Of a stretch of DNA of 64,000 bases, positions 33,418 to 63,439 are shown piece by piece. Source of the stretch: Takakia lepidozioides (taxonomy: Eukaryota > Plantae > Bryophyta); NCBI GenBank assembly GCA_030704615.1, contig CM060733.1, forward strand, positions 20,212,001 through 20,276,000, given 5' to 3'. The position numbers were made by a program, and so were the translations under genes. Position 1 is the stretch's first letter; the number at the start of each line of letters is the position of its first letter. The notes under the pieces were generated by a model. It had not been told where the DNA came from. It ran no database searches and saw only the letters and a list, made by a program, of their open reading frames with translations.

Positions 33418-33927
33418 ATGTCGTCTAAATCGGAGAGGAGCGAGCTCGATGCCAGAGCTCACGCCGGCGAAACTGTGGTGGAGGGAGGTACCGGTGGTCT
33501 GAGTATGTACGCCCAAGAGCGCTTGGCTGAGGGTATGAGCATTTCGTATAGGATTTATGGGCGATGAATTTGTTAACTGTAGTAGGGTCGGTTGGACTTA
33601 GTCTCATCCGCCGCTTGAAAGAATGTGATCGCGGAAGAGAGGAAATTGGAGCAAGTTTGTTCTGTGGTTTTCTTCTAGTGAACAGTATTCGTACTTTACT
33701 GTCGAGTGTTTGACATGCCATAGCACATTGCGTCTTGACGCTGTCTGTAAAAGCCTCAAAGATTTTATAATCTAATATTATCGTCTGAAGTGGAAGTGTT
33801 TACGCTTATTTGTTGGATATTGAATCTCTTAAATATGCAGGTCGTAGCAAGGGAGCAGTCTGGAGGAGAAGCTGCTGCAGAAAAGGGAATCGAAATCGAT
33901 GAATCGAAATTCAAGAACAATATGTGA
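33418..33927 (+). pseudogene. Em / LEA group 1 paralogue with a 77-nt frameshifting deletion in exon 2 (exons 33418-33532, 33841-33927)
   Basis: [39 protein letters not shown]|RSKG then jumps to gagcagtctgga. It lacks the 77 nt present in the copy at 46376-46930. Confidence 0.88.
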
Positions 33928-35122: not shown

Positions 35123-36413
35123 AACATGGTACCAGAGTTCAACTACAACTACAATATGGTACTAGAGTTCAACCGCCGCGCCGATCAGTTTGAGCAAGCC
35201 TCGACGGTGGCTCGATTGGCGAACCAAGTTAGTTCAGTTGAAGCCTCATTGGCGGCGATGCAGCGAGAAACTCAACTCGGTTTATTTTCAATTAAAGCAA
35301 GCCAAACCCAGATGCAAGCGTCTTTGGCGGCGATGCAGCAAGAAATTCGACTCGGTTTATGTTCAATTAAAGCATGCCAAGCCCAGATGCAAGACTCTAA
35401 TTTGGCGGCGATGCAGCGAGAATCTCAAGTCCACGGCTTACAGACAAACCGAGTCAGTTCAATTAATGAAGCAAACCAAGCCCAGAAGCAAGCCACTTTG
35501 GCGGCGATGCAGCAAGAAATTCAACAAGGTTTACCGGCAAATCGAATTAGTTCAATTGAAGCAAGCCAAGCCCTGATGCAAGCCTCCAATTTGACGGCGA
35601 CGCAGCGAGAATCTCAACGCCAAGGTTTACTGACAAAAATTGAAGAAGCAAACCAAGCCCAGAAGCAAGTCTCTTTGGCGTCGATGCAGCAAGAACGTCT
35701 ACAAGGTTTACCGGCAAATCGAATTAGTTCAATTGAAGCAAGCCAACCCCAGATGCAAACCTCCAATTTGCTGGCGACGCAGCGAGAATCTCAACTCCAA
35801 TACAGACAAACCAAGTTAGTTCTATTAAATAAGCAAACCAAGCCCAGAAGCAAGCCTCTTTGGCGGGAATGCAGCAAGTCGAACTTCCACAAGGTTTACC
35901 GGCAAACCGAACTAGTTCAACTCATGAAGCAAGCCAAGCCCAGACGCAAGCCTCTTTGGTGGTGATGCAGCAAGAATTTCAACAAGGTCTACAGGAGAAC
36001 CGAGTTAGCTCAATTGAAGCAAGCCAATCCCAGCTTGCCTCTTTGGCGATGCAGCGAGACATTGCGACTGTCGTTGCCAATATGAACTCTCGAGACATGC
36101 AGGAGCGGGCCACATATAGTCGGCCTGTGCTGAATCAGCCAAAAACCAAGACCGCCCACAGGAATATAGCTGAAGAGGCAACTGAACCATCTGCGGCTCG
36201 AACCTACATGAGGATCCGCGTCCTCGAGGTCAATCAAAGGCTGTAGTTCATGTCACTGTCGTCGAGCCCGGATGCTTCAGCTTTACTTGACGACATCAAG
36301 GATGTTGTCCGCGGCACTCGTGTGGAAGCCCAAGTAGCAGCATTCACTCATGCGTCTCTGCTGCTCCCATATTTCAGGAACCGATTGATTGAGGATTTGA
36401 GAACTCTAGAGTG
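35123..36413 (+). pseudogene. Gln/Ala-rich tandem-repeat (predicted coiled-coil) ORF of unknown function, frameshifted near 35800 and with a stop at ~36244
   Basis: About ten copies of a 22-30 aa unit SSIEASQAQ(M/K)QASLAAMQQE..QGL.ANR. TATA-like GTATAAG at 34981. No recognisable domain. Confidence 0.55.
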
Positions 36414-37229: not shown

Positions 37230-40200
37230 TGATAATATTGTCTTTCTTGGATACCTTAGAAGAGTTCTTTGAGGACGATTAAGGAAGCCAAGATACAGAC
37301 AGCTGCTCTACAGCTCCGTGATGCCGCCAAGCTATGGTGGTCGCGTCAGAAGCAGGAACGCCGTGAACACAAGAAACCATCCGTGGATAGTTGGGCTATG
37401 TTTAAGACACTGTTCTTAGCCCATTACCTACCTGGCGACTATGCACACAAGATGAAAGTTGAATTGTTCAGACTGAGACAGGAGACTATGAGCTTGGGAG
37501 AGTTTAAGACGAGATTTGAAACCCATGCCAGTTATTTCCCCTCGTTGAGTGAAGAGGACAGAGTTGATTTTTTTGTCGATGGCCTCAGTGATTCTCTCAA
37601 ATTTAAGGTCAAAGCCCACAACCCTCGTACAGAGGCAGAAGCATATCGTTTGGCCTGCAATTTTGAGAATGAAGTAAGGGCACAACGTTCTTCGAACTTT
37701 GCCCGTGGCACGGCCGAGTTCAAGCCTAGATCATCTGGTCCTTGGCAGTCACCAGCGAAGAGAGGGAATTGGAAGAGATTTAAACCGTTTAAGAAGGCGG
37801 GGGATCAAACTATACGGAGACCGCCAATGAGGGCTCCCCCAAGGCTCAGTTTCAAAGAACAAGAAGAACACAGGCGTAAGGGTTTGTGTTTCTTGTGCCA
37901 TGAACCTGGACACAGAGCGGCTGAGTGTATGAAGTACCCAAATTCTCGTCAGGCTCGACAGACAGCCGCCTTAACAGTTGAAGGACCTACAGAACCTTAT
38001 GTGGTTGTTGAAACTGGAGAGAAATCAGGACAAGAAAATGGGAGAGGTCCTAATGTGCGGGTTTCTGCAGCTATCATTGGAGACCAAATAGAGCATGACC
38101 CCAGTGTGATACGGGTTCATGGGAGAGTGGCTGGAATTCCCACTCAAGTGCTGATTGATACTGGCAGCACTCACAACCTGTTGTCAAAGGATTTTGCCCG
38201 ACAAATTGGGACTAGTTCAAGAAGACATGCAACCCTGTCAAATCTTGTTACCAGATGGTGGCGTGGATTCTACGCACAAACACATCCCAATGGTACCAAT
38301 GGACATGCAAGGAGTACGGACTATGGCTGACTTCGAGGTCTCGGAGGGAGCTCGGTACGACTGCATCCTTGGCATGCGGTGGCTGGATCCGGTTGATGCT
38401 GTGGTGGCTTGCAAATCCGGACTGGTTAGTGGTACCTTGCCCAACGGGAAGGGATTCAATATCAAAGGTATTAGAGCTCTTCCCAATATACCTGTTTTGT
38501 CAGCTATTCAAATGAAGAGATGTATCCGGAAGGGAAATGCTCAGCTTTTTGCTGTTAGCTTGCATGAGATCTTGGAAACAAATCAGGGAGAAGGGAAGTC
38601 ACATCCCAGACTTAGCCTGGTCCTGAATGAATATAAAGATATGTTTCCTGATGAGCTCCCTGGGATGCCCCCTGAACGGGAGATTGATCATGCAATCGAG
38701 TTGATGTCAGATGCTGTACCAGTTGCAAGGGCACCATACAAGCATTCAATTGCAGAAAATGAAGAATTAGAAAGGCAGTTGAATGACTTGTTGGAAAAGG
38801 GGTATATACGTCCAAGTAAATCCCCTTGGGGTGCCCCTGTAATGTTTAAGAAGAAGAAAGACGGAACTTTGAGATTGTGTGTGGACTATAGATGGTTGAA
38901 TAAGGTCACCATCAAGAATAAGTTCCCTTTACCTCGTGTGGACGATTTGTTTGACTATCTATATGGGAGTCAAGTTTTTTCAAAACTTGATCTTCGGTCT
39001 GGATATCATCAGATACGGATCAAGAATTCTGATATACCAAAGACAGGATTTCGATCTCGTTTTGGTCATTATGAATTCTTGGTGATGCCATTTGGGCTCA
39101 CAAATGCTCCAGCAACATTTACTTATCTGATGAACTCTCTGTTCCAGAAATATTTGGGGAAGATGGTTTTAGTCTACATGGATGATATACTAATATACTC
39201 GAAGTCTGAGGAAGAACATGAACTGCATTTACGCTTGGTTTTAGACATACTAAGAGAGAACCACCTGTTTGCTAAGAGAAGCAAGTGTGAGTTCTTTGTA
39301 GACCACATGGATTACTTGGGATTTTGTATTTCCAAAGATGGAATTTCAATTGATCCTAAGAAAGTCCAGACAGTGGTTGAATGGCCTAAACCAAGTGATA
39401 AGACCGAGGTCAGGAGTTTTATTGGGTTTGCTAGCTTCCTACGGAAGTTTGTTAAATCTTTTTCACAGATTGCAACCCCATTGACTGACCTGCTTAAGGA
39501 CTCGAGTCATGTAAGCTTGAAGGATGTTTGGACAAGAGATTGTGATGACAGTTTCGAGAAGTTGAAGTATGCCTTAACACATGCTCCTGTACTGAAATTG
39601 CTCGATCCTACGAAGGGAGCAATAGTACTGTGTACTGATGCAAGTGATCTTGCTATTGGAGCTGTGCTGATGCAAGATGGGCAAGTGATTGCCTATGAAT
39701 CTCGAAAGATCAGTCCAGCAGAAAAGAATTATCCCACTCATGAAAAGGAACTATTGGCAATAGTTCATGCTCTGAAGATATGGAGGCATTACCTGCTTCC
39801 AGTTGATTTTGTGATAGAGACTGACCATCAGAGTTTAAAATATTTGACCACGCAACCTCATTTGAGTCAGAGGCAGATCAGGTGGTCAGAACTGCTTCAG
39901 CAGTTCCATTATGACCTAAAGTATGTCAAAGGGAGAGAAAATGTGATTGCTGATGCACTTTCTAGGAGACCATTACACGTTAATGTTGTCTCATGCGTCA
40001 GTAGCACTATATTTCAAGATATTAAAGGTCAGTATGAGGTCGATGAATTCTTCAAAGAGCCATTAAAGAGTTTGTCTTGTGATCAGAGAACTTCTATTGA
40101 GAAAGAGAAGTACCGGCCATACCTCTTGAGAGATGGGGTGTTATTTTATAATGGTCGGCTTTGTGTTCCCCTGATTCCAGACTTGAGATTGCGCATTATT

Positions 40201-42192
40201 CATGACAGTCACAATCTTCCAATCTCTGTACACCCGGGCTTTTAGAGAACCTATTGGTCAATACGGAAGCATTATTTTTGGCCAGGTATGAAGAGAGAAA
40301 TTAAAGAATATGTGCAGAAATGTTTCCCATGTCAGGTTTCGAAGTCAGAGAGAGTCAGACCTCCTGGATTATTACAACCATTATCTGTTCCTGGATGGAA
40401 TTGGGAGTCCATTAGTATGGATTTCATTGTGGCATTGCCCAGGACCAGAAGTGGCCATGACAGTATCATGGTGGTTGTAGATAGGCTGTCTAAGATAGCC
40501 CACTTGATACCTACAAGGATGAGTGCTACGGCATCTGATGTTGCATCCTTGTACATGAAAGAGATATTCAGGATCCATGGTCTGCCTCGGGAGATTATTT
40601 GTGACAGGGACTCAAAGTTCACAAGTCATTTTTTGATCGACTTGTTTAAGAAATTGGGAACCAAGGTGAATTTGAGTACGGCCTTTCACCCAGAAACAGA
40701 TGCCCAAACAGAAAGGACCAACCGTACAATTGAAGATAAGTTGAGAATGTACGTTGGGGAAAGACAGTCCTCTTGGGAACAATATCTGTATATGGTGGAA
40801 TTTGCTTATAACAAGCATTTCCACAGTGCCATTGGCATGAGCCCATTTGAGGCTTTATATGGACGAGATTGCTTAGCTCCTGCTTCGCTTATTACACCAC
40901 CATCAAATGTGCAAAGCGTGAATGACAGAATCAAGGAGATCCACTCTGTCCTAGATCTGGTGAAGCGTAGTATGCAGGCTGCACAAGAACGGGCCAAGTT
41001 CTTTGCTGATAAGCGTAGGACTTTTCGTGAATTTGCCATTGGTGATATGGTGTTTTTGAAAGTTACACCTAAAAGAAGCAATCTAACACTAGGCAAGTGT
41101 TATAAGTTGTCACCAAGATTTTGTGGTCCGTTTAAAATCCTAGAACACCATGGCACAGTGGCCTATGAGTTGGATCTGCCTCCAACATGGAAGATCCATA
41201 AAACTTTCCATGTCAGTCTTCTTCGGAGGTATATGTCGGACTCATCACACATCTTGCCGACGTTGCCTCAAGCCATGAATGATGGTCAGCTCATGGCTGA
41301 ACCCAAAAAGATTCTAGAAACGCGAGTAAAGCACCTGTGCAACCGTTCTTGGAAAGAACATTTGATTAAGTGGTTGCATTACCCAGAGACAGAAGCTACT
41401 TGGGAGAAGGAAAATGAATTGACATTGAGTTACCCCTCATTTTCTGTCATTGAGGACAATGACCTGTCTTTGGGAGGGGGAGTTTGTTAGGTGCCTTGAA
41501 CAAAGATCGAGACCTGTCGACCAGTTTGGTGAAGCAAGTGACTGCTAGAAGACCGCCGAACTGACAGTTGCAGGTCGAATGGAGCAGGCTCGCGTTCACC
41601 AACAGATCCACGATTAGGGATTTAAAAAGTGGGCTTGGAGATGGTAAGAGTGGAGAAGAGAAAAGAATGATGGTGTACAGGCATCTAGGGCAGATCTGTA
41701 TTGACAGGAAACTAATGTAGCATGGCGTGGTGGCTGGGCGGACCGGACGTAGCCGGTGCTGTGCTTTTTGGTGAGCAGAAAAAAGGTCGTGAGAAGAAGA
41801 AAAAGGATCGATCTGCACTGGTCTAGGGGGATAGAATGTGTTGATGCACGGTGTGGTGGAGGGGCGGACTGGACATCGTAGTCTAGTACTGTGCATAGAT
41901 AGAATGGCATGAGATGAGTACATAGGTTGACAGGGAGATCTTTTGAACAAGGAATCAGGCCAGGGTAGGAGTGACGATCACTTGATCGATCTGTGAATTT
42001 GTAAATGAGGGAAGTGGAATAAGAATAGGGCCTTGGCTGGAATTCAGATATAGATGAGAGTCCGGTCGAAACAAAATCCCGAGCAATCAGTTTTCCTTGG
42101 AGTTTTGGTAAATTCCCTGTGAACAGCAAACCAAGCAAAGCGCCTGAAATTTTATCATAGTTGGACAAAGAAAAGAGAGTCAGATCCTTACA
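37230..42192 (+). mobile_element. 5'-truncated chromodomain-bearing Ty3/Gypsy element (gag-PR-RT-RH-INT-chromo, PPT, 3' LTR 41486-42192)
   Basis: Gag CFLCHEPGHRAAEC; PR LIDTGST; [10 protein letters not shown] and YMDDILI; [14 protein letters not shown]; INT with GPF motif; chromodomain LIKWLHYPETEATWE. PPT gggagggggag, then LTR TGTTAGG...CTTACA. One +1 frameshift at ~38200 and one TAG at 40243. Confidence 0.95.
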
Positions 42193-44051
42193 AGTCCGTA
42201 GTGCTATGACTTGTCCAAAGTGGTGGGGTCCTGCCCATTTGGAAGAGACCAGTCAAAGCTCTGAAGAAGGCGAGCAAGCATTAACGGAACCATGATAAGT
42301 GCCAGCAGTGTTCCTGGGCATCCCCTTCTCCCGGTTCCAAAAGGCAAAAGCTCGAAGTGCTGGCCTTTAACATCAATCTCAGGATGCTCCATGAATCTTT
42401 CTGGATTAAACTCAAGAGGTTTCTCCCAGGTAAGAGGATCCCGGCCTATTGCCCATATACTCACGATGAGACGGGTGTTGGCTGGCAGAATATAACCAGC
42501 AACTTCACATTGCTCACGAGACACATGGGGAAGCAGGAATGGACCCGGGGGGTGAAGGCGGAAGTTCTCTTTTATTACAGCTTGTAGGTACTTGAGGTTT
42601 GGGAGGTCTGATTCCTGGACAAGCCGAGTGGTTCCAACAACAGCATCTAGTTCAGCTTGTACGCGTTTCATCATATGAGGGTTGTGTAAGAGCTCGGCCA
42701 TTGCCCATTCTGCTGTGACCGACGATGTGTCTGTTCCAGCAGCCAACATGCCCTGCATCACGTGAACACAAGAATTTTGACCTCAAACCTAGCTCGAAAC
42801 CGGAAGCCACATGTTTAGGAATCTTGCATTTAACATAGAACTTCACTACTATGTACAACTTATTCCGAGCTGTCGATTTTGATAGCTCAAGTGACCAAAT
42901 GCTAGCAATTTAGCATGAAAACTTACCAGGGTCACAGCTTCTATGGTTTCATCGGAGAGCTGACCAGTTCCATCTTCTGTAGGCATGTTGAGCATCACGT
43001 CAACAAAGTCTTTTGGTGTATCTCTATTCCCTGTTTGCACTGATACAGCCTTTCTGTGTCGTCAATCCACTGCCGAAGAATACTGCACAGTACGACCTGC
43101 GTCTCCCTCATACGCGCCTCGATACCTTGCAGCTTTGACACCCACGATAAATACGGGACGTAAGTCACCAAATAGGAACATCCCACTAAAGTGAAACTGT
43201 TTGTCGATAAGTTCTTTAAACTGTTGCGCTTCTGCAGACTGACTTTCCGCATCAACTCCGCAGTACCTGAGATAGGCGAAGATGGCAATTGAATTCTAAG
43301 TGTCGATGACAGTCCTGAAGGATGCAGTCTTATTCAAGTTGCCTAAGTTGCAAGTCTATGATAGCTTATACGTACCAGGTTTCCATGGATGTCACAACAT
43401 GTACAACAAAGAACGTTATATGTTCTGATAATCTCCATTCAATAAAAAATCAAACGGCTTAGCTCATACCTTTTGTTGATCAGCATGCGAGTCGTGATGT
43501 TAGTAGCCAGCGACGACAGCTTAAGGTTGAGGTCTACCACCTTTTCCTTCTGTGACTCGTCAAGGATGGCCTTCAATATGGCATTTACCTCCTCTGTCCT
43601 TGCAGATCTTAGCCATTCCAGGCGTTTCTGACTGAAGAGCTCAACCAGGGAGATCTTGCGTAAATGACGCCAATAAGGACCTGAAGAATTCCCAATGCTT
43701 TTGCCATTTAAAGAAAATATAGTCGAAGCCAAAGACTTTGGACGATAGGCAAACGCTTCATCATGGGTCCGGAGAAACTGTTTCGCCATCTCTGCATTCG
43801 ACACTACAACAGTATCAAAAGATCCAAGGCGCAGGTACATCAGAGGCCCATATTTCTCGGCCAAAGACAGGCCATGGGCGTGGCCCTGGAGGCAAGCGAG
43901 TAGGTTTTCTTATGTAGAGATAACCGTACACTGCAATGGTGACAAGGACGCATATCGATAGAGGTAGCCCACGTTGTTCCTGAGCCCACCGAGCGATTTC
44001 TTGCAGCAGGCCTGGTGTTTTCATATTTTCTACCACCCCACTCAAGTTCAT
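42193..44051 (-). pseudogene. Cytochrome P450 (CYP71 clan) pseudogene, three exons, 3' end cut by the Gypsy LTR
   Basis: TM anchor + LPPGPRPWP, KYGPLMYLRLGS, WRHLRKI, AGTDTS, ENFRLHPP, FNPERF and heme motif FELLPFGTGRRGCPG. A deletion/frameshift follows PWPVF, exon 2 has frameshifts, and a stop reads LDKS*HYGL directly against the LTR. Confidence 0.92.
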
Positions 44052-45081: not shown

Positions 45082-47410
45082 GCGCAATAGTTAGAGCTGA
45101 GAGTGCTTCCTAAGATATAGATCTTGGGTACACTTCGTTGAAAGATGAAGAAGGGTTGGTGTGGGCTTCACACTGATCTCGAGTCTTAATTCTGTGTGTG
45201 GGAGAGATAGAAACAGGCCGATATCAGTTTTGACAAGTAATTTAAGGAATTCAAACCTGTTAATTACAAGGTTCTTTATCCTCAATCACGTAAATATCTA
45301 ATCTCCCAGTTTCTAGATAATCCAAAGAAAGGGCATGTCTTATTTGCTAAAGGGGGATAGACAGACTTTTTAGGATAAAGTTTTTGACCGCTGAATCATC
45401 ATTCAAATCATACCCGTTCTTTCTTTGATCACGAGCTAGATTGTTCACATCGATATGAGAACTCACCATCATCAGGTCGTTGTATCATGGCAGCAAGCTC
45501 TGATGTCTCGCAAGGTTGCGTGTTTCGACCAATAAAGAATCGAATAAGAGCTTCTTTGCGCGTTTAACTGAAGTGAAGGTAGGACGCTTCGACTTCTCTG
45601 TTGCAAGTGCGGCCGCAACATCGTCGTCACTCTTCCTTGTCCAATTGCCTGTCATGGCAGTGTACCATCAACCTGTTTATTACCTTTCTCCCTCGGCCTT
45701 TCCCTTTTTTCTCCTTTCTCCGGCTAGGGAAGTGTCCCTTGTGCTTTCGCCTTCACGGCCCCCTGCTGGTTATTTTTTCCACCCACTGAACCAGTGTTGA
45801 ACTTACATGTCCATTTTTTAATACCGGTCCGGTATGAAGGGTCCAACCTGGCATAGGTATATATACAGGTATGAGGAATTTGGGTATGAATCTGGTTTGA
45901 GTAAATGTATTTTAGGTTGTATGAGTACAGTACTCGTATTTTATTTTTTTCAGTGATGGGGGGGTTGTATGAGCTTTGGTATGATATTTGTACTAATTTC
46001 TATTGTTCACCATACACAGAAATAAATGTCATTAAGCACACAGCTAATCGTAGTTTAAATTCTGATACACTAGGCAAAGGCAGCCCATGAAGTTTGAATT
46101 ACAGAAGGGAGCTTTAAACTAACAAAAGTGTAGTACTTTTCAGTACTACGAAATCCAAAAATTTGCACAGAATAAGTTTAGTGCATGAGCAATAACATGT
46201 CCAAACGACTAGGCTATGCATTTAGCAAACTCTCTACTGCAGAGAACAGCTCTTGCACGATTTTAGATCAACTATTTTTGATGATGGGTTATTTGCATCT
46301 ATGTACAAATCCAACCATAGGTCGAACTATCCATAGGAATTTGTGACCACTGGCAGCAATGGCATAATGCCAGCTTCACATATTGTTCTTGAATTTCGAT
46401 TCATCGATATCAATTCCTTTCTCTGCGGCAACTTCCCCTCCAGACTGCTCATTCGTTGCAAGCCCACCCTTACGACCCATTTCCTGATAACCTTCCTTCC
46501 CCAGCTGCTCAGATCGAATCTTTCCTCCCTTGCTACGACCTGCGCATACGCAGCGACTCAATATCCAGCAAATTGTGCGTAAACATTCTACTTCGGACAA
46601 TACTGTTCACTAGTCACTTTAAATAAGATGGCATGTGCAATACTAGTACAGTGCGAATCCTGCTCACGAATGAAAATCATAGAATCAACTAATTGTCTTT
46701 ACTTCCCCGATCACATTTTTTCAAGCGGCGGCCAGTAACCGTTCCGAATTGTAGTTAAACAATTGCATGGAATTATATATATATATATATATATCTCTAT
46801 ACGAAATGCTTATACCCTCAGCCAAGCGCTCCTGGGCGTCGACACTCAAACCACCGGTACCTCCCTCCACCACAGTTTCGCCGGCGTGAGCCCTGGCATC
46901 GAGCTCGCTCCTCTCCGCCTTAGACGACATTGTCTTTCCGCTTAGCTTCTCTTTCCCTGCGCACAGTATGCACTGGAGATTTAATGTCCAACCAAGTCGA
47001 TAGAGAACAAAATCATATAATATGGTGACACCCGCGCGCGGGTGATCGCCAGAGGGTAACTCAGGTTTTAACCTTCGACCACAGCAGCGAGAAGTATCCG
47101 GCAGCTACAAGATCACCGAATCTCATAGATTACAAATCGAATACCGCCAAACTTTCTTCCAATTCACCCTCACTCTCAAGTACCTCATACAATCTACCCA
47201 ACCACTTTCAACTGGTACAGCTCGTTAAACGTGCTGACACTGAAGTACATTAGGTCGTAGCCGAGACAATCCAGACACTCTGAGAGCTCTCAAGTAGTCA
47301 ACGACAATGCAGTCTGAAATTAAGAGTGACATGGCTATGACGGTAGCGCAATAGCTAGAGCTGAGAGTGCTTCCTAAGATATCTTGGGTACACTTCGTTG
47401 AAGGGTTGGT
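45082..47410. repeat. ~65-80 bp direct repeats (45082-45161 and 47346-47411) flanking the - strand Em gene
   Basis: gcgcaatag(t/c)tagagctgagagtgcttcctaagata...tcttgggtacacttcgttgaa...agggttggtg appears twice; the second copy has two short deletions. Confidence 0.85.
46376..46930 (-). CDS. Em protein / LEA group 1 (small hydrophilic seed protein family), exons 46930-46816 and 46539-46376
   Basis: [39 protein letters not shown]|[53 protein letters not shown], with the hallmark GETVVxGGT and the 20-mer. Confidence 0.95.
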
Positions 47411-51008: not shown

Positions 51009-52482
51009 CCTGCCCAATAGACAACATGGCCCTTATGTTCAGTGCATGTATGTGCATTGTACTTAGATATGTAAATCTCTACGTAAAATATAGACCCACA
51101 TATGTAATAGTTTGTACATGTGTGTCAATGAATTTGACCACATTCCTACACTCAACGATCTTGATCTTCCGTTGCAAACTTATTGAATGAATGCATGGGC
51201 ACTTCAAACCTTCAGATAACCTCCAATGCCAAGGCAGGGCAGAGGACACTCAAGCGCATATACAACTCACATGAGGCAGCTAAAAGGGATAAATGTTTCT
51301 CTCGATGTCCAGATTGCACGGTTCCCTTCTGCATCTGCATCTCATTATTCATGGATCATTATTGTATGGCAATATGACAAAATGATGAGTCGGACACCAG
51401 TGCAACCTGTCAAGTTATTTTACCACTGGTGTGAAGTTAGCTAGGAAATAGCTAGCTTTTATATATTGACATTTGGGATTGACCCAAGTGTCAATCCAGG
51501 GGCCAATACATGTTTGGGGCACCTGGCGTTGTTATCTTCACGGCAGATCGCGGTGGGCTCATCTTTCTCGAGTTGAGCCTCACCGTGTCTAGCTATGGCG
51601 CCGTAGTGTGGATTCCCCATGGCGTGGGATGCACTTGGCTGGACTTAATATATGAGTGATGTTTTCATGTGCAAGTGTGTGAGTTTGAGAGAGCTTGAAT
51701 GCTTGTATCATTCGTTTCATTATCACTTGAGAAAGATCAGCTCGAGTCTGTGAGTGCCAGGTTCGAGTTAGTTGTAGCACTTGTGTTTTCAGATCATGAG
51801 AAGCGGTTCAGCCTAGAGTGTATGGAGCCGTGCATAAGCCTATCCAAAGCGGATAGAGTGCAAAGGCGAACAGGTTGCAGGTTTGCCATGGATAGAGAGG
51901 CGGGTAGCCTATGTTGAAGAGCGGCGTTGCATAGCTCAACGCTATGGCAACCAAGTTTGGGCTTCTAGTGTGAAGCGAAGGAAATGCTGGCCACGAGTGG
52001 GCGAACTGGTGGTCGTCTTCTTCAGCTGCAGGCCGAGTTAAGGAGCTGCTGAAATGTGGGCAGCGCATGGGAAGTTAGCATGTTGCAGGTTGGAGATGAT
52101 ATGATCGGCTCCAGGTATCTGCCCGAAACGAGTTGTTGCGGGTAGATGAGGAGCAGCCAAATGGCGGAGCTGCGAGGGGATGCATCGCAGCCTTGTGGGA
52201 GCTGCAGCTCCAAGCTCATGAAGAGGTATGAGTGAAGAGATGGGGCTGGTCCCTCTTGTATGCAAATCAGTGCACTTGTGAAGTATTGCTTGAGTTGGAA
52301 GTTTCAATCTGAAACTCTAGCACGGCGAGGGCTCTTGGAGTGACAAGAGCAGGGCTGGAAGGGCAGTAGTGAGGCGTCCTAGAGCCAGGGAATGTGCTGT
52401 CGTGCACCTAAGCATCGTGCCACAACATACATCGCTGTCCACCCACAATCTAAGCACACAATCCTAGAAAGCTATACCACAA

Positions 52483-52989
52483 TGATAAGAGATGAGAAAT
52501 GAGAGAAGTAGAAGACAATGAAAGCTCTCAAAGCATGAAGCAATCAATGAAGAACACAAGCCTAGTCCTCCAATGAAATCCACTCTATCACATAAACTAA
52601 GTCAAGCCAAGGGCACCTTTGCTAAAGGAATCCACCCTACAAAGCCCTCAACACACTCCCTCTCAATACCTAGAGCTATGGAGGTGAGAGAGCTCATGGA
52701 GGCTCAACTACAAGAAGATGAGCCTCCTCAACACTCACAAGGGGAAAACCTATCTCCATGTCTCAAGTGAGGCTCGACACCTCACTTGCATGTGAGACCA
52801 AATGAAGTCCCACAACACACAAATATAAATATAAATATCTAAAATGTCCTAGTTAACTAGAAGTAGGTAATTCTAGATAAACATGAATAAAACCATGACA
52901 GGGGCGTCGTGCACCTAAGCATCGTGCCACAACATACATCGTTTGTCCACCACACAATCTAAGACACAATCCTAGAAAGCTATACCACA
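52483..52989 (-). repeat. Complete 3' LTR (A + CCCC + B) of the MTase-Gypsy element
   Basis: On the - strand it starts TGTGG right after the PPT AGGGGGCGA(T) and ends TTATCA. Its B part matches 62828-63248. Confidence 0.85.
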
Positions 52990-53242
52990 ATCGCCCCCTA
53001 GCTGGTGGTTAGGTCCCTCTAACTCCAGATAGCTACAGATGTAATAGCCACAGCGTACTAAGTCCTCTATCACTGTCCCTATTGTACTCAAACTCTATAG
53101 ACCAAGAGGCCGGGTACAAGAGCAAACCCCATCGTTAGTTGCCGTCTTGCAATCTGTGAACTTGAGTCAGGGATCGTGTGTGGTCTCCTAGTAGCTTGGC
53201 CTTGCATTTCTTGTTAGCCTTCCATGGTTGTATCCACTCCCA

Positions 53243-53390
53243 CTATCCAATGCAATGCGGACATAACGATCCCCATCAGGAACCATCTCAAGAGGTGGAG
53301 TCAAGCATCCATATGCCAACCTCTAGAGCATTGATCACACACCAGCATGGTGGCTGCCCCTCTAACAGACCCACACAACATGCACCTCAA
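53243..53390 (-). pseudogene. PHD finger (C4HC3) at the integrase C-terminus
   Basis: LRCMLCGSVRGAATMLVCDQCSRGWHM-(fs)-CLTPPLEMVPDGD-(fs)-LCPHCIG*. Confidence 0.9.
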
Positions 53391-56300
53391 ACTTGCAGGC
53401 ACCACTGCCAGGTTTGGGTCACCCCTTCCATCAACATTGGAAGGTGACATGGCGCGCAATTACGCACATGGTCCTTCCAAATCATGCCATCCCGACCCTC
53501 CAAGATCAGGACTCCTGAGGGCAACACCTCTCGAACCCTCAAAATAGTACGTCCTGCAATCACATCCAAGGTCGTAGGAGCAGTCTGCTGCAGATAAACA
53601 CAGTCACTAGAGGGTTGAATCTCCGAACCCCAGGACGATAGCCCCCACCACGTATGGTAGCATACCTCAACGTATCACGATGTTGTGCAATGCAAGGTTC
53701 TCGAAAGCCATGGGCAAGACTTTCCTGAACAACTATAAACGCTGCTCATATGCACGTGCCCACACGTCCGGATCGTCAAGGTTAAGAACTGTAGCAGCTA
53801 GCTCTCACAAATGGATGTAGGCAAATCCGGCTCTCGGCCAAAGAGAAGAAAGTATGGTGAGAAGGAGGCAGTGATGCTTGCTTGCTTGAACCTGTAGCCC
53901 ATGGCTAACCAGGGTAACTGAAGGTCGCAATATCCTAGGTGTCCCTTCTGCAAGCCATACTTGCGCAAACCCCTCTTTACTGTCTGAACAACTCTCTTGC
54001 CAAGCCATCGGCCTCAGGATGATCCCGAGAAGTGGTGCGGTGGTCTATCAAGGCCTTGTCACACAAATCCTTGAAACTCCCCCAAGAACTCTCTCCTTGT
54101 GTCCGTGAGTACTCAGCTGGAGCACCGAATCGGCTAAGCACACAATCAAAGAATGCACGCAGCTCCCTCACTAGCCTTATCAGGCAATGGAACCAATTCA
54201 ATCCATTGGAGAAGTGCTCCACCATCACCAACACGCGTACTTGTTGTGGCGCATGGTCAGTGGCAACGGCCCTACGAAGTCAAGACCCACCTGTAGCCCA
54301 ATCCCCATGATCGGAAGAGGGGTGCAATTGTGGAGAGTAGGGCGTTTGAATGAAGCACGCACCGTGTCACCACCATGCACACTAGCTACAAATTGTTGCA
54401 CTTTGTGTGCATACCACGCCACCAATACTGCCCCTGCAGAGGAACTGTGAGTGCGTCACACCCCAAAAGGCCCAACTCCTCATGGGCATGCGGACTAACC
54501 GTGCCCGCTGTGTTGGGGGAGGCACAATCCTCACTCGACCATCCTCCACACTCGGAGCAGGTGTGTCCCCTCCCACTTGAACCTCTTGGCTCGTTGTAGG
54601 ATCCGATCCCTCTCCTTGGCAGTCATAGTGGCTTGCAGTGTCTCCAGTGCGGAGGTAGTCCAACACAACTGAATCCTCATGTATATCTTTGGCGCCACCT
54701 TGCTCATGCTGGCCTCAGGGTCCTCAGACACTTGATCTACAGTCATCCAGTTGTTGCAGGTCAACTTCGGCCTTCCGCCTGCCAAGTTGATAACAAAAAT
54801 GCATATGCATGCCATCCGTGCACCATCTCCTCGTCCGTCTCACCATGCACCGAGCTCCAGTGTCATCCTGCTGGCTCGTGCATGGATCACTAGGATAGCA
54901 CATGTGGCATTGGTTTCCCTTTTCTGAACTCGCAAAAGGTTCCGTTACCCTGGTACTGAATGGCGACTCAACCCATCTGCATTGCGAAACCCGGTCGAAT
55001 GCACCACCTGAAAGTCCTACTCTTGAAGGATGAGTGCCCACCGTTGCAAGCTTCCCCGTAAGCTTGTATAACTCCATCAACCACTTGAGTGGTTGGTGAT
55101 CCGTGACAAGGGTGAAGAGATTGCCGTATATAGATAGCACCGAAGAGTGCCACGGCCCCCACTGCAGCTAAGCATTCTCCCTCATATGAGCTATAACTTA
55201 GACTCTTGCAACGTGTTCGAGGGGCTAGCATAAGCCACTATGAACTCTCTTCCCTCATCATCCACCTGTGTGAGCACCGCTCCAAGCCCCAGCATGCTCC
55301 AATCTGTATGCAGCTGAAAAGGACGCCTCCTGATAGGTCGTCTCAAGATGGGCGCCGAGGTCAACCTACCTACTGAGCTCTTGAAAAGCTTGTTCTTGCC
55401 TCATCTTCCCACTGCCACTCCTGGTCCACCTTGGTCAGCTGGTTTAGAGCCTTTGCAATGGGCACTAAATCCCTTAACAAACCGTCTTAATAGTTTGCTA
55501 ACCCCATGAAAGCTTCAAATTGGCTCCACATCCGTGGGGCGTGGAAACTGTGCAATGGACTCTACCTTAGTCTACTGTACCCCCAAATCTCCAGGATAGA
55601 TCATGTGACCCAGATACTCAATCTGGTTGTGGAAAAACTTGGCACTTTCCCGGATGTAACTTCAATTCCGTGCGCCCTCAAGCGCTCAAATACCCCTGAA
55701 GGTGTCTCTCATGCTCTTCCACCGTTAGCACTAAAGATGATGATGTCATCTATGTAGCACGAGCAAACTCCACCCCTGCTAGAATCCTATCCATGACTCT
55801 CTGAAACTCTGCCGGAGCGTTCTTAAGCCAGAATGGTAAGAACCGCCACTGGTATAGGCAATCCTCCCGGCTCATTGATCCCCCAGAATGCCGTCTTTTG
55901 CTTATCCGCCTCCTTGATCGGCAACTGGTGATATCCGGATCATAATTCCATGTGCTAAAGACCTTGGCATGCCCAATGGCTCAAAGATCTCCTCTGGTAT
56001 TGGCATGGCATTACCTATCGGACTTGGTCTGACGATTTACAGGCCGGGTCATCACCGCACATACGTTTCCGTCCAATTGCCAAAGACATCCTCCTTGGCT
56101 AGCATCATTGTGGCTGAAGCATACTCTCCCCCAGATAGCTCCACCAACTAGCCTCCCAAGGTCCTGAGTTCTCATCTGAATCAAGGACCTCTCCATGTCA
56201 CTATATCTATAGGGTCTCCGAAAAGTTGGCATGTCAGAGTAGCCAATTCAATACGAAAATCGCTTGACCCTTCAGTGCTCTAAGTCCTTCAAACGGAAGG

Positions 56301-56739
56301 CAAAGGAGTTCCTGTAAGCCCTCAAGAACCGCCCGCGTATACGCCGTCTCTCTCCTCGGTGATATAGGTCCAACTCAGGTCCCACTGTCCTCCGTGACTG
56401 CAACCTTGAGTCTAGCAGGCTTAGAGGTAGAAGACGCGTCTGTGGTTGCTATGCTGCAACTCTTGAGCAGTGAACACGCCTCCTCTGTCAGTGACAATGT
56501 TCATCTACCCCATCATCCCATCTTTGAGGACCTCTAATCGAGAAAAAATCCCCAACTGATCCTCAACGCCGCTTGGCTTGCAACTCATTCTGAAACTCGA
56601 GCACCCTGCCCCACTGTGTGCCATGGATGCGGCTGCACTCGGGTCCTCACCTGCTCGCCCCCACTCGCTGCCTGTACGTCTCGGTAGGCAGGGAGACATG
56701 AAGGGAAGTGTACTCCGTACTCTGCGCTGTCAGCCATAG

Positions 56740-57690
56740 CCAAAATGATAATCCAGGTCAAGCAATTGAGATCTATTGCTTGCCCCAACACTTGACGACG
56801 TGATGCCTCAGAAAGAGATGGGCACCGCCGTGGTACCTGTGGTAAAACTCATCCGCCCGTCGCGCTCGTCAGCATTGGGCTCCACTAATTGTTGCAAATG
56901 GCTATCCCACAAGAGGCAGGTCCACCATCCCGAAAAACATGGGATCCTGGGAAGCTGAGCAGTGTAGGTGAATGTGTCGTGGTTGACCCACCTTGTTGAC
57001 CCACGGCCAAGACGAACGTCTCATCGTGTCTCACACGTTGAGACTGCCTCCCGTGTCCAAAATGCTATCCACTGTGAGGTGTGCCGGCCGCTGCACCACA
57101 TCAATGCACGCTTGAGTAGTGCGGGTGTGCATCAAGTTAGTCCACCAAGCGGTGGACGATGAGCCATGACCCATGAGCAGTGCATCCAGCAACCACTGAT
57201 GACCCAAGCCACGACCGGACTTGATGCACACTGGCCATCACCTGGTGCACGAGAATCACCCATCAGTGGCACATTCTCCAAGATGTATGCTGGAGATACA
57301 GTTTGATGAAGCTGCAAGTGACGCAAAATACCGCCCACCTCTCCCAAAACAGACCCGTCCTTGAGTCTCGCATCCATTGCCATGCCCGGCTGATGAATGC
57401 CTTGGTAGGGCCAACCTGCCACCAAGATCAATGGAGCCAACCCGCTCAAATCCTGCGCCCCCAGCAACGAAATGTCTGTTGGCCAAGGTTGTTGGTATCC
57501 ACGAAGTGCAGACACTGGCAACAAATCAGGGGTACTGCTGTAACAACTGAGCAACATGGCGCAGTGAGATGCGTCGTGCAGTCTCATCCTTCTCATATAC
57601 AGGTAACGTCAAAACTCGTACACCTGCCTGCAGTACTGCAGCCAATCCAGTGCTGATCCGCCAAACAAGTACAGAAGAAAGATAGGCCTT
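56740..57690 (-). pseudogene. Dnmt3-like DNA (cytosine-5) methyltransferase domain within pol
   Basis: Motifs in canonical order across frameshifts: I LFG(G)ISTG, II YEKD, III DI, IV IDL.AGWPYQG, VI AYILENVP, VIII LDA....AHRP..WWTNL, IX EPNADER...M.F.TGTT, X RRQVLGQAIDLNCL. Confidence 0.88.
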
Positions 57691-60600
57691 CATCCGGGCA
57701 CTGCACACAAGAGGTTGTGGTGCCAATGGCGACAACTGAGGTGGTTCCTGGTGCAATTAACGCACTTCCTCTTCTCCTGACAGTACGAAGGCTCTACCCA
57801 GGCTTGTTGTACCCATCCATCAGCAGCTGTGCTGTGCCCATAGTGGGTGTGAGCAACCATGGCAGGCAACTCCGCCGTACATGCATTGTCATCCCTGTTT
57901 ATGCTGGAGGTGACACACCTCTGCATGGGCATTGCCTTCAGCAACTCTCCAGGCAGCTAAAGGCGGCTGTGTTGGCAGCTTGCCCCGCTGGGCAACCGCA
58001 ATACCCCCAATGAATGTCACAGGGAGCTGTGCACGACGACCATCCCCTGACTGCCATCCAGGCCTGTAGGATGCTGACTCCTCCCAAAAGTCCAGGGTGA
58101 AGCCCATGGGATATAACACTGCCCCACCAACAAGGACATCGTAAGAGACCGCGTCTGTCACAATGGCCTTGGCGCATCACTGAGCCATCTACAGGATGAT
58201 TGGTTGGCCAACTCACGCCGTGTCATGCCCCGAGCCTACTCTGATCCTCCCAGAGATGTCTGTATCTGGAAAGGACAAGGCTCCATATCCGCCTCCATGA
58301 GGCCCAAACCTGTTAATAGCAGCTCTGCCCAACATCAGTGGCTGAGCTCCTGAGTCCAACAAGACCCGCAGTGGCCGGTACTTTGCCTGCCGGTCCACTC
58401 AAAGTGAAAATGCCTCCCTGGTTGTCTAACAAGACAACTCCAGGTGTCACCATGCCGCGCTCAAAGGCTGGCCTAGCTGGCAGCTCCGTCAAACTGGCAG
58501 CTACAGCTTGCCATGGCGCAGCCGTGGCAGTCTTGACCCTCAAATCTGAGGATCCCTCTGCCACTACACCTTCCAGTAACTCCGCAGAAGATAAGTGACC
58601 TCCCACTCTCGCAGAGTGTGTTGCTGCTAGTTGAACACTGCAACTGGTCTTACCCCGGCGTCGCAATCATGGTTGCCGAGAACAGTGGGGCTTGACACAC
58701 AGAGGTGGCTGCCCCCAATAACACAACGGTGCACTAGCCTTGGTAGCAGGTGTCAGTGTGCTGCACGTGTAGCTCTCCCCAATGGCATAGTAACCTCCGC
58801 CTCGGTAACAGTCAGGGCGAGAACTAGGTGCCATGGATGGCGTCGACACTGTCTCCGCCAATGTGAATGACTGAGGAAGCCTCGCCTGACGGCTTGCCTC
58901 CCCACGCTGTGGATCAATTCCACCTCTGCAACCTCGTGGCTCAGGAACTCGTGCTACTCCTCGAGTCACGGCTGCAGCAGACTCCACCTGCACTAGTGGT
59001 AGTGCTACCCGCACATGAATCCCATGCCTCCCATATCTCCTTCCTTAGGAGCAGGAGGTGGACCATCCCCTGGGAGCCGTACCACCTGAGCTGTAGCCAT
59101 GGCAGCGGACCTCTGCTCTAGGTGCTGATGAAGCCGGTTGGCCATGTCTTGGTCAACACCCTGACCTCCGCGTCTTGGCCATGTTGAGCTTGCCCTTGGC
59201 TGCATCTCGTGCCCGACCACCATCGTCCTCTCTTGGCTGGTCCCCTCGCCCCGGCCACATTGTTCCCTTGGAATGGCCTGGGCGCAACTCAGGGTGCAAG
59301 TCATAACACTGGGCATCTCCATGCCCATTGCCACAATGCCCCACACTGCAACTGTGCAGGCTGTGCTTGTGCCGGCCTTCTGCCACTCTCTGGGCAATCT
59401 CTCTTGACATGGGGTCCTCCACATGTCCAATATATCACCCCTGGTTGCTATTGGCCTGCAAAAGATGCCACGGGCCTCTGCACCTGAGGTCCCCTGTAAG
59501 CTCCATGGAACTTGGGTTGGGCAACCTTGCCCCCTGACCACGCTGTTGGGCAGTCCCTTGTACCTGTGGCTGCAGCTGCACCTCATGCAGGCATGTCCTT
59601 GCCAAATCCAATGGTAACAACTCGCTCCTCCACCATGTTGAGCTCAATCCGCTCAGCCAGCAGAAACACATCCGCTAATGTGGGTTGGGCGCTTGTAACA
59701 GGGTTGCATCCCGCACCCTTCTCTTGAGCTCCTTGTCCAAAATTCCATACCAGAACTGGACTGCCTGAGCTTCAGTAACCCTTGGGTCACACTTATCAAG
59801 CGCCTCATACGAGTGTAGGCCTCTCGCAAGCTCTCACTGGATTTGCGCTGGAAGTCTTGCGAACTTCGCAGCTTCTCTGTCCGTACACCTTGGTAGTTCC
59901 TCCGCAACTCCTGGAAGAACTCCACCACCGGGTGGAATCTAGGCACATGTGTTGTAATTGTGGCAGGAGGAGAAGTAGCACCTTTTGAACTGGTACCACT
60001 TGCAGAAGTGCCGACACTACTTGTTCCACTACTAGTGCTTGTAGTTGGAGATGTTTGTGTAGCTGCTGGTGTCACTGCTGCCCTTGTGCCTCTAGTGATT
60101 GAGACATAGTTAGGTGACCAATACTCTCGCCACTCCTCAATCTCCACCGCATGTCCCCGCCTAAATTCATGGTAATCATCCATGGACGGCCCCTCAAGGT
60201 GCTGGAATAACCCATTCCACGCCATAAACGGCATAAATAGTTGTGGATTGCGCATTTGCTGCAAATCACACCAACTGTCAAATTCTTGTATAAAGTCATC
60301 AAGCTCGATGGTGCCCACAGCTCCAGAGTACCTACGTGGCCCCTTGGTAGCTCCATACATCTCCTCCATCGTGTCCCACAACAATGGCACGGAAATGACT
60401 TGCACCCTCGGCGAGAATCCTCCTGACTCCGAGCTTCCTCAGAAGACACTGAAGGTGAAAGTGGCCTAAACCGCACACCTTGTCTTGTGTACCCACTAGT
60501 ATCGCTGGTGCTTCTACCGGCACTCCCCTCAGCAGCTGGTGGCACCTCCGTGATGAAAACTCACAACCCAACTGGTTGTCAACCTGTCTCTAATCCCCAC

Positions 60601-61204
60601 TTTCTACAAGGTAACCGGATAAGAACCTGTTGCGGCTACTGGTTCAAGCAGGAATATTAGGTTTCTAACGTAGACCTGTACCTGCACCTGCATCCACTGC
60701 AAGCACTCCTATGGTCTGCTGGTCATCAACCCAGCCTCACCATAGAAGAAACACTGGTGGTCTTGCTGGTCATCACTCCAGCCTCACCACCGACAACATA
60801 CTCTAGGATTGGCCGGTGATCAAATCCGGACCAACCTCCTATGAAAACAAGCGCCCACACAAAGCTAACATGGTGCACAGTCAAGCATGCAGTGTGGAGG
60901 GGATCCAAACACAAGAAAATCAAGACAACAACTCCCCCACACCAAAAACACTCCACAGTGTCGCTCCTGCAAGGACACCCCAGCCCAAACCCGGACTGAC
61001 TCTTGCCTCCACCTACGGAAAGGTTTTGGCCTACAGAGAGGGTGAAAGACTATGGAGAAGAGAAACTAAAGCAATTCCTAACCCAGAATGCTCTTATCCC
61101 ACCACTCTCCCTCCTGTCTCTATCCACTCGCTTGTATGGCCGTGGCAAGTATCCTTCAATATCCCTCAATCAATCCTTCAAGAGCTCTTCAACATTGTCC
61201 ACCA

Positions 61205-61330
61205 AAGCTCCTCGAAGGGTCCTCCAAGGACCCCAAAGATCTCCAAACACTCCTCCAAGGACCCCAAAGATCCTCCAAATACTCCTCCAAGGGCCCTCAA
61301 ATATCTTCCAAACAATCCTCCAAAGGCCCT
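61205..61330. repeat. Degenerate ~33-bp tandem repeat in the element leader
   Basis: ctcctccaaggaccccaaagatc(c)tccaaa repeated ~4 times. Confidence 0.85.
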
Positions 61331-61357
61331 TAAATTTCACTAAGTCCTTTCACTGTT

Positions 61358-61562
61358 GATACCTTAACAGAGGTATAGTCTGAGGTTGCTAGGGTCCCTT
61401 ATGTTGATGATACCTTTACAGAGGTATAGTCTGAAAATAAGGGTTCTGTTTGGTATACTAACAGAGGTATAGTCTGAGCTGATTAGGGTCCACATATGGT
61501 GATACCTCAACAGAGGTATAGTCAAAGGGACAAGCTCATGTTTGGTATACTAACAGAGGTAA
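61358..61562. repeat. Five short repeats (three forming clear hairpins) separated by 18-25 nt linkers in the element leader
   Basis: GATACCTnAACAGAGGTATAGTC core (stem ATACCT/AGGTAT). Confidence 0.9.
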
Positions 61563-62815
61563 TGCAAGTCCTTGACTTCTATGCTTCTACTCAAGCAAAA
61601 ATATGGTCTCTAGGTGGTCATAAGAGGCATCTTCTTGCTCTTTTCCACCCCAATGTGCAACCAAGAGTGGTCCAACTCAACTTGCAAGTCATTGTCCACC
61701 AAATCAATCCCCCTTCTAGTCCTTGGGATTTGATTGCAAACTATCATATCTCCATTGCCGAGCAATCATGCATTTGTCTCCTCATCACTTGACAATTGCT
61801 CCAAATCAACACAAATTATCTCAATGTGTAGGAGCAATGCTTGTCACTTACAATAATGCTCCCAAGCAATCCGCCTTGGATCCCACTCTCACGCCATATG
61901 CCTCATTTGGGGTCTTGCACCAATCCATCATCCATGTGCTCCCCGTGGTCATGTTTCATGACCTCTTGGCCTATGTGTTGCTCTCCTTCATCATAACATG
62001 AATCAACACCTCTCCACTTCACACACAAATGGATCTCAAAGGCCTTCACCTCTTGCTAGTTCAAGAGCTCCCCTTCTCAAACTTGAACTTACAAACTCAA
62101 GCGAGCATGCTCCACACATGCACCACTTGCTTGGTCAACTATCCACCACAAAGCTCGCACTACCAAGAGCATGAATAGCCAAGTATTGCCTCCCCCTCTT
62201 GTCACATTACATAGTTAGGGTGAAGCTTTGCATACATTGAATGATGATTTCCCTTCAAAGATTTCCCACCACATGTTCTCCAAGCCCTTCCAATGGCACC
62301 CTAAGCTTGGCTCCACACCACCATGATTGGAAGATTTCTTCACATGCTCCCTTTCAAAACCTCTTGAGCTTCTTAGTGCTCTCCAAGTGCTTGCCCTTGT
62401 TGTCTTCAAGCCCAAGCATATATAGCTCATTGGCTTTTCTTCCACAACATCCACACTTTGAACTTGCTTAACCCTAGCTTGATAGTGAAATGAGCACTAA
62501 CAAGCCTTTAGTCACTCTCCACAAGCCATGGCGCACACCATCGACTCCATAATGCATACAAAGGATTCTCAAACCCTAGAATCTATGCTTCCACACACAC
62601 AAGACTTCCTCCTTACAATCCTTGCAAAATCTTGTGACTCAAGAGCTTTCTTCTCAAGCTCTCCAACTCCTTGGTGCATGCAATACTCGAGCACCTTTCC
62701 TTGCAACCCCTTGCAAGCCTTGTGATACAAGAGCTAAAATTCTCCTAGCTCTCAACCTCTTTAAAATACAAGTGCAAAACTAATCCTTACACTCCGCACT
62801 CACAAGCATAAGGTG

Positions 62816-62827
62816 ATCTTCTTGTAG
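62816..62827 (-). promoter_or_regulatory. Self-priming primer-binding site
   Basis: CTACAAGAAGAT directly follows the 5' LTR end on the - strand and is 12/12 complementary to ATCTTCTTGTAG inside the LTR (63067-63056). There is no TGG tRNA-type PBS. Confidence 0.75.
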
Positions 62828-63439
62828 TGATAAGAGATGAGAAATGAGAGAAGTAGAAGACAATGAAAGCTCTCAAAGCATGAAGCAATCACATGAAGAA
62901 CAAGCCCTAGTCCTTCCAAGTGAAATCCACTCTATCACATAAACTAAGTCAAGCCAAGGGCACCTGTGCTAAAGGAATCCACCCTACAAAGCCCTTAACA
63001 CGCTCCCTCTCAATACCTAGAGCTATGGAGGTGAGAGAAGCTCATGGAGGCTCAACTACAAGAAGATGAGCCTCCTCAACACTCACAAGGGGAAAACCTA
63101 TCTCCATGTCTCAAGTGAGGCTCGACACCTCACTTGGCATATGAGACCAAATGAAGTCCCAACACACAAAATATAAATATAAATATCTAAAATGTCCTAG
63201 TTAACTAGAAGTAGGTAATTCTAGATAACCATGACTAAAACCATGACAGTGCAGTAGAACTGCAGGTACACCAAGTTTATCAAGTTGTGTATTTTCAGAT
63301 TGTTTTTGTGAGCTTCATGAAGAAAAGGGAGCTTGTTGGGCAGCATATAGCTTGTTTGTTGAGTTGGAGGCACTTCTAGTGGGCCGTGAGAGCTCAGGAG
63401 TGCAGGGCGACGGGGCTGATGGCTCCGCAAAAGCCATAG

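Follow-up and report, generated by a model that had tools for sequence, protein, structure and literature searches.

A Gypsy-type retroelement of 10.85 kb lies at positions 63248-52398, on the minus strand, of the window, by which we mean the whole 64-kb stretch of Takakia lepidozioides DNA analysed here. The copy is broken, and its domains follow the Gypsy order of protease, reverse transcriptase (RT), RNase H and integrase (PR-RT-RH-IN). A Dnmt3-like cytosine methyltransferase domain is located between the protease (58380-58012, upstream) and the RT (56358-55602, downstream), co-oriented with both, as a preliminary description of this DNA had claimed; the PHD finger, self-priming site and permuted repeats named there are likewise all present. 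The parts of the element, from its 5' end, were as follows.

63249-63252, minus: 4-bp target-site duplication GCAC, left copy, identical to the bases after the right end
62828-63248, minus: repeat B, 5' copy, about 420 bp, with the element start 5'-TGTCATG; 96% identical to 52483-52900
63055-63067, minus: predicted self-primer; 13 nt that can pair with the primer-binding site
62816-62828, minus: primer-binding site of the self-priming type, directly after repeat B, recognised by complementarity
60370-62815, minus: long 5' leader; contains short tandem repeats (61356-61561)
59276-60369, minus: gag, broken, ATG at 60369; 61% identity over 215 aa to Marchantia P0073, also matched by tblastn
58012-58380, minus: aspartic protease (LDSG), broken; 64% identity to relative P0009
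56712-57706, minus: Dnmt3-like C5 methyltransferase domain, with 19 frameshifts and Tyr for the catalytic Cys; from alignment, PDB and fold matches
56443-56451, minus: conserved TAG, then CAA CCA; predicted leaky stop ending the Gag-protease-methyltransferase ORF, from relatives
55602-56358, minus: reverse transcriptase, broken, YIDD at 55756-55745; 75% identity to P0009
54999-55392, minus: RNase H, broken; 81% identity to P0009
53438-54520, minus: DDE integrase (H2C2 and core), broken, upstream limit approximate; from relatives
53250-53384, minus: C-terminal PHD finger, broken, downstream limit approximate; PF00628 in relatives
52991-53002, minus: polypurine tract, at a position common to relatives
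52906-52990, minus: repeat A, internal copy, 85 bp; 95% identical to 52399-52482
52894-52912, minus: internal A/B junction, decayed, CACGACA-NN-TGTCATG in relatives; predicted integrase substrate
52483-52900, minus: repeat B, 3' copy; 96% identical to the 5' copy
52398-52482, minus: repeat A, terminal copy, with the element end CACGACA-3'; from repeat comparison
52394-52397, minus: 4-bp target-site duplication GCAC, right copy, matching the left one

The 5' leader gave no match to the fetched relatives, and Rfam and ARAGORN returned no matches on the 64-kb window.

Elsewhere in the window, plant-type genes were represented by pantothenate kinase pieces (2-4175), a GH17 glucanase with X8 (14433-16010), a P450 nearest to those of plants (42204-43909), LEA_5 and a PPR-like fragment. 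Mobile sequences included a LINE with endonuclease and RT (4435-9544, plus strand, 809-aa frame), the 3' part of which is partially duplicated and whose region holds a 69-nt tandem repeat (4930-5136), a chromodomain-bearing Gypsy element with long open frames split by in-frame stops (37260-41490, plus), transposon-like frames with DUF7869 (25273-28056, plus) and a probable Copia RNase H fragment (30742-31347). Further repeats comprised inverted duplicates 12-13 kb apart (33412-34013 and 46290-46936), the right one overlapping an LEA_5 (Em-like) exon, a long inverted repeat with 283-nt arms (96%), composed of PPR-like fragments, that could form hairpin RNA (19492-20288), repeats of ~177 nt encoding a Gln/Ala-rich repeat protein with no Pfam match (35048-36246, plus), and two short tandem arrays (18053-18828 and 29245-29973) whose units recur roughly every 190 and 200 nt.

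Identity, relatives and decay of the methyltransferase domain

The domain was delimited (57706-56712, minus strand) by frameshift-aware alignment with Calypogeia fissa protein P0003, residues 306-641 of which were covered at 333 of 336 positions with 203/314 identities (65%); the alignment score was 831, compared with 32-50 for five shuffles. Motif order was kept, with motif I at 57668, IV (AGWPY) at 57419, VI (ENV) at 57278, VIII at 57164, IX at 56867 and X (RRQVLGQA) at 56800, so that the motif series of the preliminary description stood for these, while II and III fall inside the aligned span and were not separately located. The position of the catalytic Cys is occupied by Tyr (codon 57407-57405), as had been read before. 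A Pfam scan of the window's open pieces gave no PF00145 match, because these pieces are too short and mutated, and the search proposed for this profile succeeded only with relatives (46 and 37 bits against a cut-off of 22). The largest open piece (57530-57240, 97 aa) did find relative P0001 (54% identity, E 6e-19), which combines a retroviral protease with a PF00145 domain above cut-off and has a motif IV reading AGWPCQG. The best PDB sequence matches of P0003 were DNMT3A/B (E 8e-11), ahead of DRM2 (E 2e-4, chains named DRM2) and HhaI (E 3e-3), and DNMT3A was also the top Foldseek match (E 3e-14) of a predicted model of relative P0005 (mean pLDDT 55.5). The Dnmt3-like identity proposed for the element-borne domain is near certain.

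Searches with the methyltransferase region returned 71 relatives of about the same length and 44 that were longer, from Marchantia polymorpha, Calypogeia fissa, three Sphagnum species, Closterium, Scenedesmus and unnamed hosts, and a profile that included flanking sequence collected 527 clusters at E values up to 1e-30. The same layout with an intact Pro-Cys was seen in relatives from Marchantia, Calypogeia, Sphagnum and metagenomes. Across 256 proteins, the domain stood before the RT, as in the window, in 83 and between RNase H and integrase in 102, the rest having the domain alone (70) or in an ambiguous position (1). Scenedesmus (P0095) was the only named host of the RNase H-methyltransferase-integrase form (P0090-P0113). 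Metagenome loci were obtained with an alignment query, which found 405, 80 of them kept; a single-protein query found none. PHD (PF00628), and no chromodomain, was detected in 25 scanned relative proteins.

Both trees, computed as quick searches with SH-aLRT support only, grouped the window copy with bryophyte-type elements: those of Marchantia, Sphagnum type and Calypogeia in the methyltransferase tree (support 99), and those of Marchantia and Sphagnum type in the RT-RNase H tree (support 100). The RNase H-methyltransferase-integrase form made up one side of a branch in each (97 and 93). The methyltransferase tree had 144 rows, made up of the window, Closterium, six outgroup rows and what a similarity filter left of 163 near-complete domains; since its only host DNMT3 was a single long-branch one, with no plant DNMT3 or DRM, the phylogeny called for earlier speaks to the affiliation and not to donor or root. 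One old acquisition followed by a later move of the domain would fit these sequences. The heavily broken state of the window copy, with 77 indel against 78 substitution sites, might suggest that this copy alone had received the domain, by nested insertion, by capture of part of a host gene or by chimeric assembly. This is refuted by the identical position of the domain in Marchantia, Calypogeia, Sphagnum and dozens of loci and by the concordance of the two trees, which leave such an origin a vanishingly small probability; the domain is native to the family.

Several loci stood apart. Those numbered L063-L086 (for instance L067:5673-14987) constitute a second, distant subfamily from the same peat-type metagenomes, with split repeats and self-priming in common. 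One of them, L074, has a direct repeat of ~4 kb (82%) containing protease, methyltransferase and one B, possibly a tandem or nested copy. Six weak prokaryote-virus methyltransferase matches on IMG/VR contigs (L001-L006) were 34-40% identical to the family over 42-72 residues and shared the motif IV IAGWPCQG.

The window domain carries 19 frameshifts and the RT 14, with zero in-frame stops in either. The indel and substitution sites given above were counted within 1.2 kb against other copies in sequencing runs of the host species, in which 1280-4650 contigs per run aligned to this 1.2 kb, pointing to a high copy number; a run presumed to be RNA gave 2 contigs, which carry no weight on expression. 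Because the nearby LINE and chromodomain-bearing Gypsy element retain ORFs of 809 and 696 aa, many indels of the window copy may have arisen as assembly errors left uncorrected in a high-copy repeat. The exchange of Cys for Tyr goes back to a C-to-T transition in CHG context, of a type typical for methylation decay, and Tyr recurs at this position in two other proteins. Retention of the catalytic Cys in other copies, on which the preliminary description had made its claim depend, was confirmed: motif IV had Cys in 204 of the 256 retrieved proteins (Tyr or Leu in 3, unmatched in 49; hence 204/207 of those matched) and in 33/33 matched metagenome loci (of 80), and the Cys codon at 57406 accounted for 98%, 76% and 95% of contig depth in three host-species runs from one sample. 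The key catalytic residues are thus kept at family level, while the window copy itself has Tyr, and motifs IV, VI and VIII were conserved across at least 200 relatives.

Between distant copies, dN/dS was 0.16 for the methyltransferase (78 pairs), like the 0.23 of RT and the 0.15 of RNase H, and below 1, the check asked for earlier, although dS was near-saturated, the column filter favours conserved columns and close pairs gave 0.4-0.8. A comparison restricted to fully open domains covered three methyltransferase loci only. With these caveats, sequence comparison indicates that the methyltransferase domain is under purifying selection between distant copies. Divergence of the window element from peat-type copies was about 2 in dS. 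The observed/expected CG ratio was 0.49 in the element and 0.46 and 0.42 in two neighbouring elements without the enzyme; since the depletion matches that of enzyme-less neighbours, composition gives no sign of extra self-methylation, and neither CG nor CHG depletion separated this element from neighbouring ones.

Stop codon and repeat architecture

About 85 codons past the methyltransferase domain, and in frame with it, the window reads TAG CAA CCA (56451-56449 being the TAG). The enzyme had been described as lying within pol; strand and frame agree with this, but the conserved stop separates the domain from the RT. The junction pattern was matched in 25 of the 80 metagenome loci, some of them duplicates, with TAG in 20, TAA in 4 and TAC in 1; CAA came next in all 25, and the stop position was in frame with the RT where the copy was unbroken. 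The divergent locus L044 has TAG CAA CCA, like the window, and Sphagnum-type copies have CAA CCC after the stop, one base off CARYYA. A stop followed by CARYYA is given as the plant readthrough consensus in the available text of two papers (PMC5397192, PMC2194720).

A complete domain before the RT was present in 63 proteins, 42 of which end within 200 residues of it. Full-length products are represented by six metagenome proteins (1280-1332 aa, four clusters), which run from gag/CCHC through protease to a methyltransferase with an intact PCQ motif IV and end shortly after it. Another 20 of the 63 continue into RT, RNase H or integrase, five of these being gene models from Marchantia or Sphagnum in which splicing may remove the stop. 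By virtue of the conserved stop, the methyltransferase ends a Gag-protease-methyltransferase ORF, with RT-RNase H-integrase-PHD likely produced by readthrough. As the stop is upstream of the RT, the enzyme would then probably be made at Gag level, not RT level, in the window clade. Readthrough appears likelier than reinitiation, given that an ATG after the stop was limited to Sphagnum-type copies; no conserved RNA structure was found downstream of the stop. In the L067 subfamily methyltransferase and RT share one ORF, with no conserved stop intervening; together with the 20 run-on proteins, this argues that capsid-level expression is not required family-wide.

The earlier claims of permuted LTRs and of self-priming both held. 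The repeat layout of the window element is B-internal-A-B-A, with a TGTCATG start, a CACGACA end and GCAC flanks, and 3' ends of the form A-B-A were found in eight loci (about seven insertions) from two subfamilies. Among seven elements with both ends, the target duplication was an exact 4 bp in four, one transition off in two and absent in one. Single-A 3' ends (B-internal-A) occurred in five loci (L020:2507-11241, L023, L036, L064 and L080), the first with an exact 4-bp duplication, and may stem from recombination, collapse or one-repeat circles. As for priming, none of 1000 random internal sites reached the 13 nt of complementarity seen in the window, and pairing at the same position was found in 12/17 distinct 5' ends, the sequences involved differing between three lineages. 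The pairing was present in both the MFE and the centroid fold of the window element, the overall fold having a z of only -0.76.

With a polypurine tract preceding the internal A and a primer site after B, reverse transcription should define a repeat A+B; the inserted ends sit at the A/B boundary instead. In relatives this boundary reads CACGACA-NN-TGTCATG, a head-to-head CA-NN-TG, whereas at B/A the two RT-defined ends meet bluntly; in the L067 subfamily these ends are without TG..CA. Private changes were common to both A copies (A1 and A2) of one element, as expected if both had been recopied from one template. From these junctions we infer, as the simplest reading, a two-repeat cDNA circle opened by integrase at the A/B junction. 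Cleavage of palindromic 2-LTR junctions by foamy-virus integrase is described in the accessible part of PMC1180852. A symmetric circle should also yield the mirror product B-A-B-internal-A, which was seen in 0/16 distinct 5' ends among the loci; for the circle model to hold, one product must be favoured, for reasons as yet unexplained.

Comparison with described elements

The element is a variant of the KnitGypsy-Dnmt3 type reported from Klebsormidium nitens (de Mendoza et al. 2018), a kinship judged by description, as no protein named K. nitens was among the retrieved relatives. According to the available text of that paper (PMC5890265), KnitGypsy-Dnmt3 was acquired in the K. nitens lineage and has DIRS-like repeats and Ka/Ks <0.2; a Gypsy domain set, an intronless, non-rearranged Dnmt3-like domain, such repeats and purifying selection are thus common to both. 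Its methyltransferase shares one ORF with RT and RNase H, whereas in the window clade a conserved stop stands between them in the same frame. Its host is an alga; here the host is a land plant, with repeat junctions, self-priming site and target duplications resolved. The Klebsormidium domain, the only Gypsy-borne one tested in print, showed no methylation in yeast, a result graded inconclusive by its authors.

Split direct repeats and a Dnmt3-like domain are also found in SymbioDIRS-Dnmt3, the domain of which methylates CG in yeast, and the former in split-direct-repeat DIRS elements generally (the same paper, as far as its accessible text goes). DIRS elements use a tyrosine recombinase, unlike the window element with its DDE integrase, polypurine tract and 4-bp duplications, and the DIRS order (PAT/Ngaro, SymbioDIRS) was rejected on account of the integrase core and 4-bp duplication. 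Self-priming, in which the primer site pairs with the 5' region of the element itself and not with a tRNA, is known from Tf1/Sushi and Tcn1 Gypsy elements (PMC6317226). These are chromoviruses with ordinary LTRs, in contrast to the PHD finger, split repeats and methyltransferase seen here, and the word PHD does not occur in the available text of that paper. A chromovirus assignment (Tcn1, Chlamyvir) was ruled out by the PHD finger and lack of a chromodomain in the scanned relatives; the RT-RNase H was at most 39% identical to that of the window's chromodomain-bearing element.

In-frame stops between ORFs, in a CAA-CC context, are described for MuLV gag-pol, Tca2, SIRE1 pol-env and TMV (UAG-CAR-YYA) in the accessible portions of PMC2194720 and PMC5397192. 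The retroelement stops covered there come after gag or after pol, whereas the window-type stop follows protease and methyltransferase and precedes RT. EpiLTRs of Cymbomonas and Euglena likewise join LTR elements to a cytosine methyltransferase and a chromatin reader; as presented in the available text (bioRxiv 10.64898/2026.05.21.726589), their DNMT has DNMT4 as its sister and is accompanied by a DAM domain and a chromodomain, and the authors set it apart from Gypsy-DNMT3. Troyka, an unusual LTR lineage with the Gypsy domain order in common, was discarded, being animal-only with CG..CG ends and 3-bp duplications in the accessible text of PMC12440569, versus TG..CA and 4 bp here.

On occurrence, one 2019 review states, in its available text, that land-plant genomes lack DNA methylases encoded by transposons, with tracheophytes as the group named (PMC6338049), and two later papers speak of 'streptophytes' with reference to PMC5890265 (PMC12344493 and the EpiLTR preprint, likewise in their accessible text). 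The species table of de Mendoza et al., as available, includes Physcomitrella and Selaginella; Marchantia and Sphagnum are absent from it. Judged from the retrieved sequences, Gypsy-DNMT3 elements are present in land plants, at least bryophytes, and, with the domain behind RNase H, in chlorophytes. The preliminary description had called such enzymes no standard feature of land-plant Gypsy lineages and the whole an unusual system; its presence in bryophytes is evident from the Marchantia, Calypogeia and Sphagnum relatives plus the window, and the system is a variant of a published one. Beyond PMC5890265 we found no published land-plant or chlorophyte Gypsy-DNMT3 in a search whose scope excluded later supplementary trees, subscription journals and Repbase, and the searchable literature held no description of this stop or of a mechanism for split-repeat Gypsy elements. 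New with respect to searchable print are thus the land-plant and chlorophyte occurrence, the conserved TAG-CAA-CC stop and the resolved B-internal-A-B-A layout.

A possible replication route and its implications

We propose, with moderate confidence, that a Dnmt3-like enzyme, made at Gag level and set free in the particle by the protease, methylates cDNA of the element itself, which then integrates via a circle. The transcript would start inside repeat B and prime itself, and occasional ribosomal readthrough of UAG-CAA-CC would supply RT-RNase H-integrase-PHD. Ordinary reverse transcription would give A-B-internal-A-B, the ends of which would be joined into a two-repeat circle. Integrase would then cut the CA-NN-TG junction between A and B, leaving two recessed CA ends with 2-nt overhangs, and would insert B-internal-A-B-A. 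The methyltransferase, produced at capsid level and freed inside the particle, would mark this long-lived extrachromosomal DNA, and new copies would arrive already methylated. In a broader and decidedly tentative version, an ancient green-plant DDE-integrase lineage would have moved its integration sites to the internal junction and made the circle obligate, with a Gag-level DNMT3 methylating that circle, possibly at the junction CpG, thereby controlling which junction is cut and delivering pre-silenced copies.

Other roles for the enzyme were weighed against this. It might serve as an integration-junction switch, CpG methylation of CACGACA selecting the junction to be cut or protecting the internal one, a purely inferential reading that we hold to be unlikely; it would account for the CpG-containing end being kept in the window and both subfamilies despite CpG depletion elsewhere, for only one of two possible permutations being seen and for the split repeats of published DNMT3-bearing DIRS and Gypsy elements (available text of PMC5890265), but the CpG may persist simply as part of the integrase binding site. 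Somewhat less probable still is that the enzyme works in trans, on the chromatin of the host or on copies already integrated and not on cDNA in the particle, and thereby restrains the family's own copy number. Gag-level expression would indeed exceed the enzyme need of cDNA by far, and a host benefit is among the options of De Mendoza et al. (same text), yet the fusion to Gag and protease points to the particle, and the family reached the high copy number noted above.

A non-catalytic or RNA-directed role in the particle, such as nucleic-acid binding or RNA methylation, would suit both a stoichiometry like that of a structural protein and the negative yeast assay of the Klebsormidium domain, in the text available. 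We regard it as the least probable of these roles, as motifs IV, VI and VIII are conserved in so many relatives and fold and sequence are nearest DNMT3, not DNMT2. Methylation of particle cDNA by the element's own enzyme remains our preferred account.

The Marchantia, Calypogeia and Sphagnum relatives, together with the window, show that element-borne DNA methylases, stated to be absent from land plants, occur at least in bryophytes. Such domains can inflate DNMT3 gene counts in bryophyte annotations, and several Marchantia gene models are in fact these elements. Marchantia polymorpha being a transformable model, the role of a retrotransposon-borne DNMT, open since 2018, becomes testable with natural proteins that have all motifs; the conserved stop predicts the amount of enzyme, and the junction sequences predict a circle integration route that can be checked in extrachromosomal DNA. 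If the proposed route is true, these elements would replicate by a strategy of their own, intermediate between those of Gypsy and DIRS elements, and bryophytes would have a second, element-borne source of de novo methylation.
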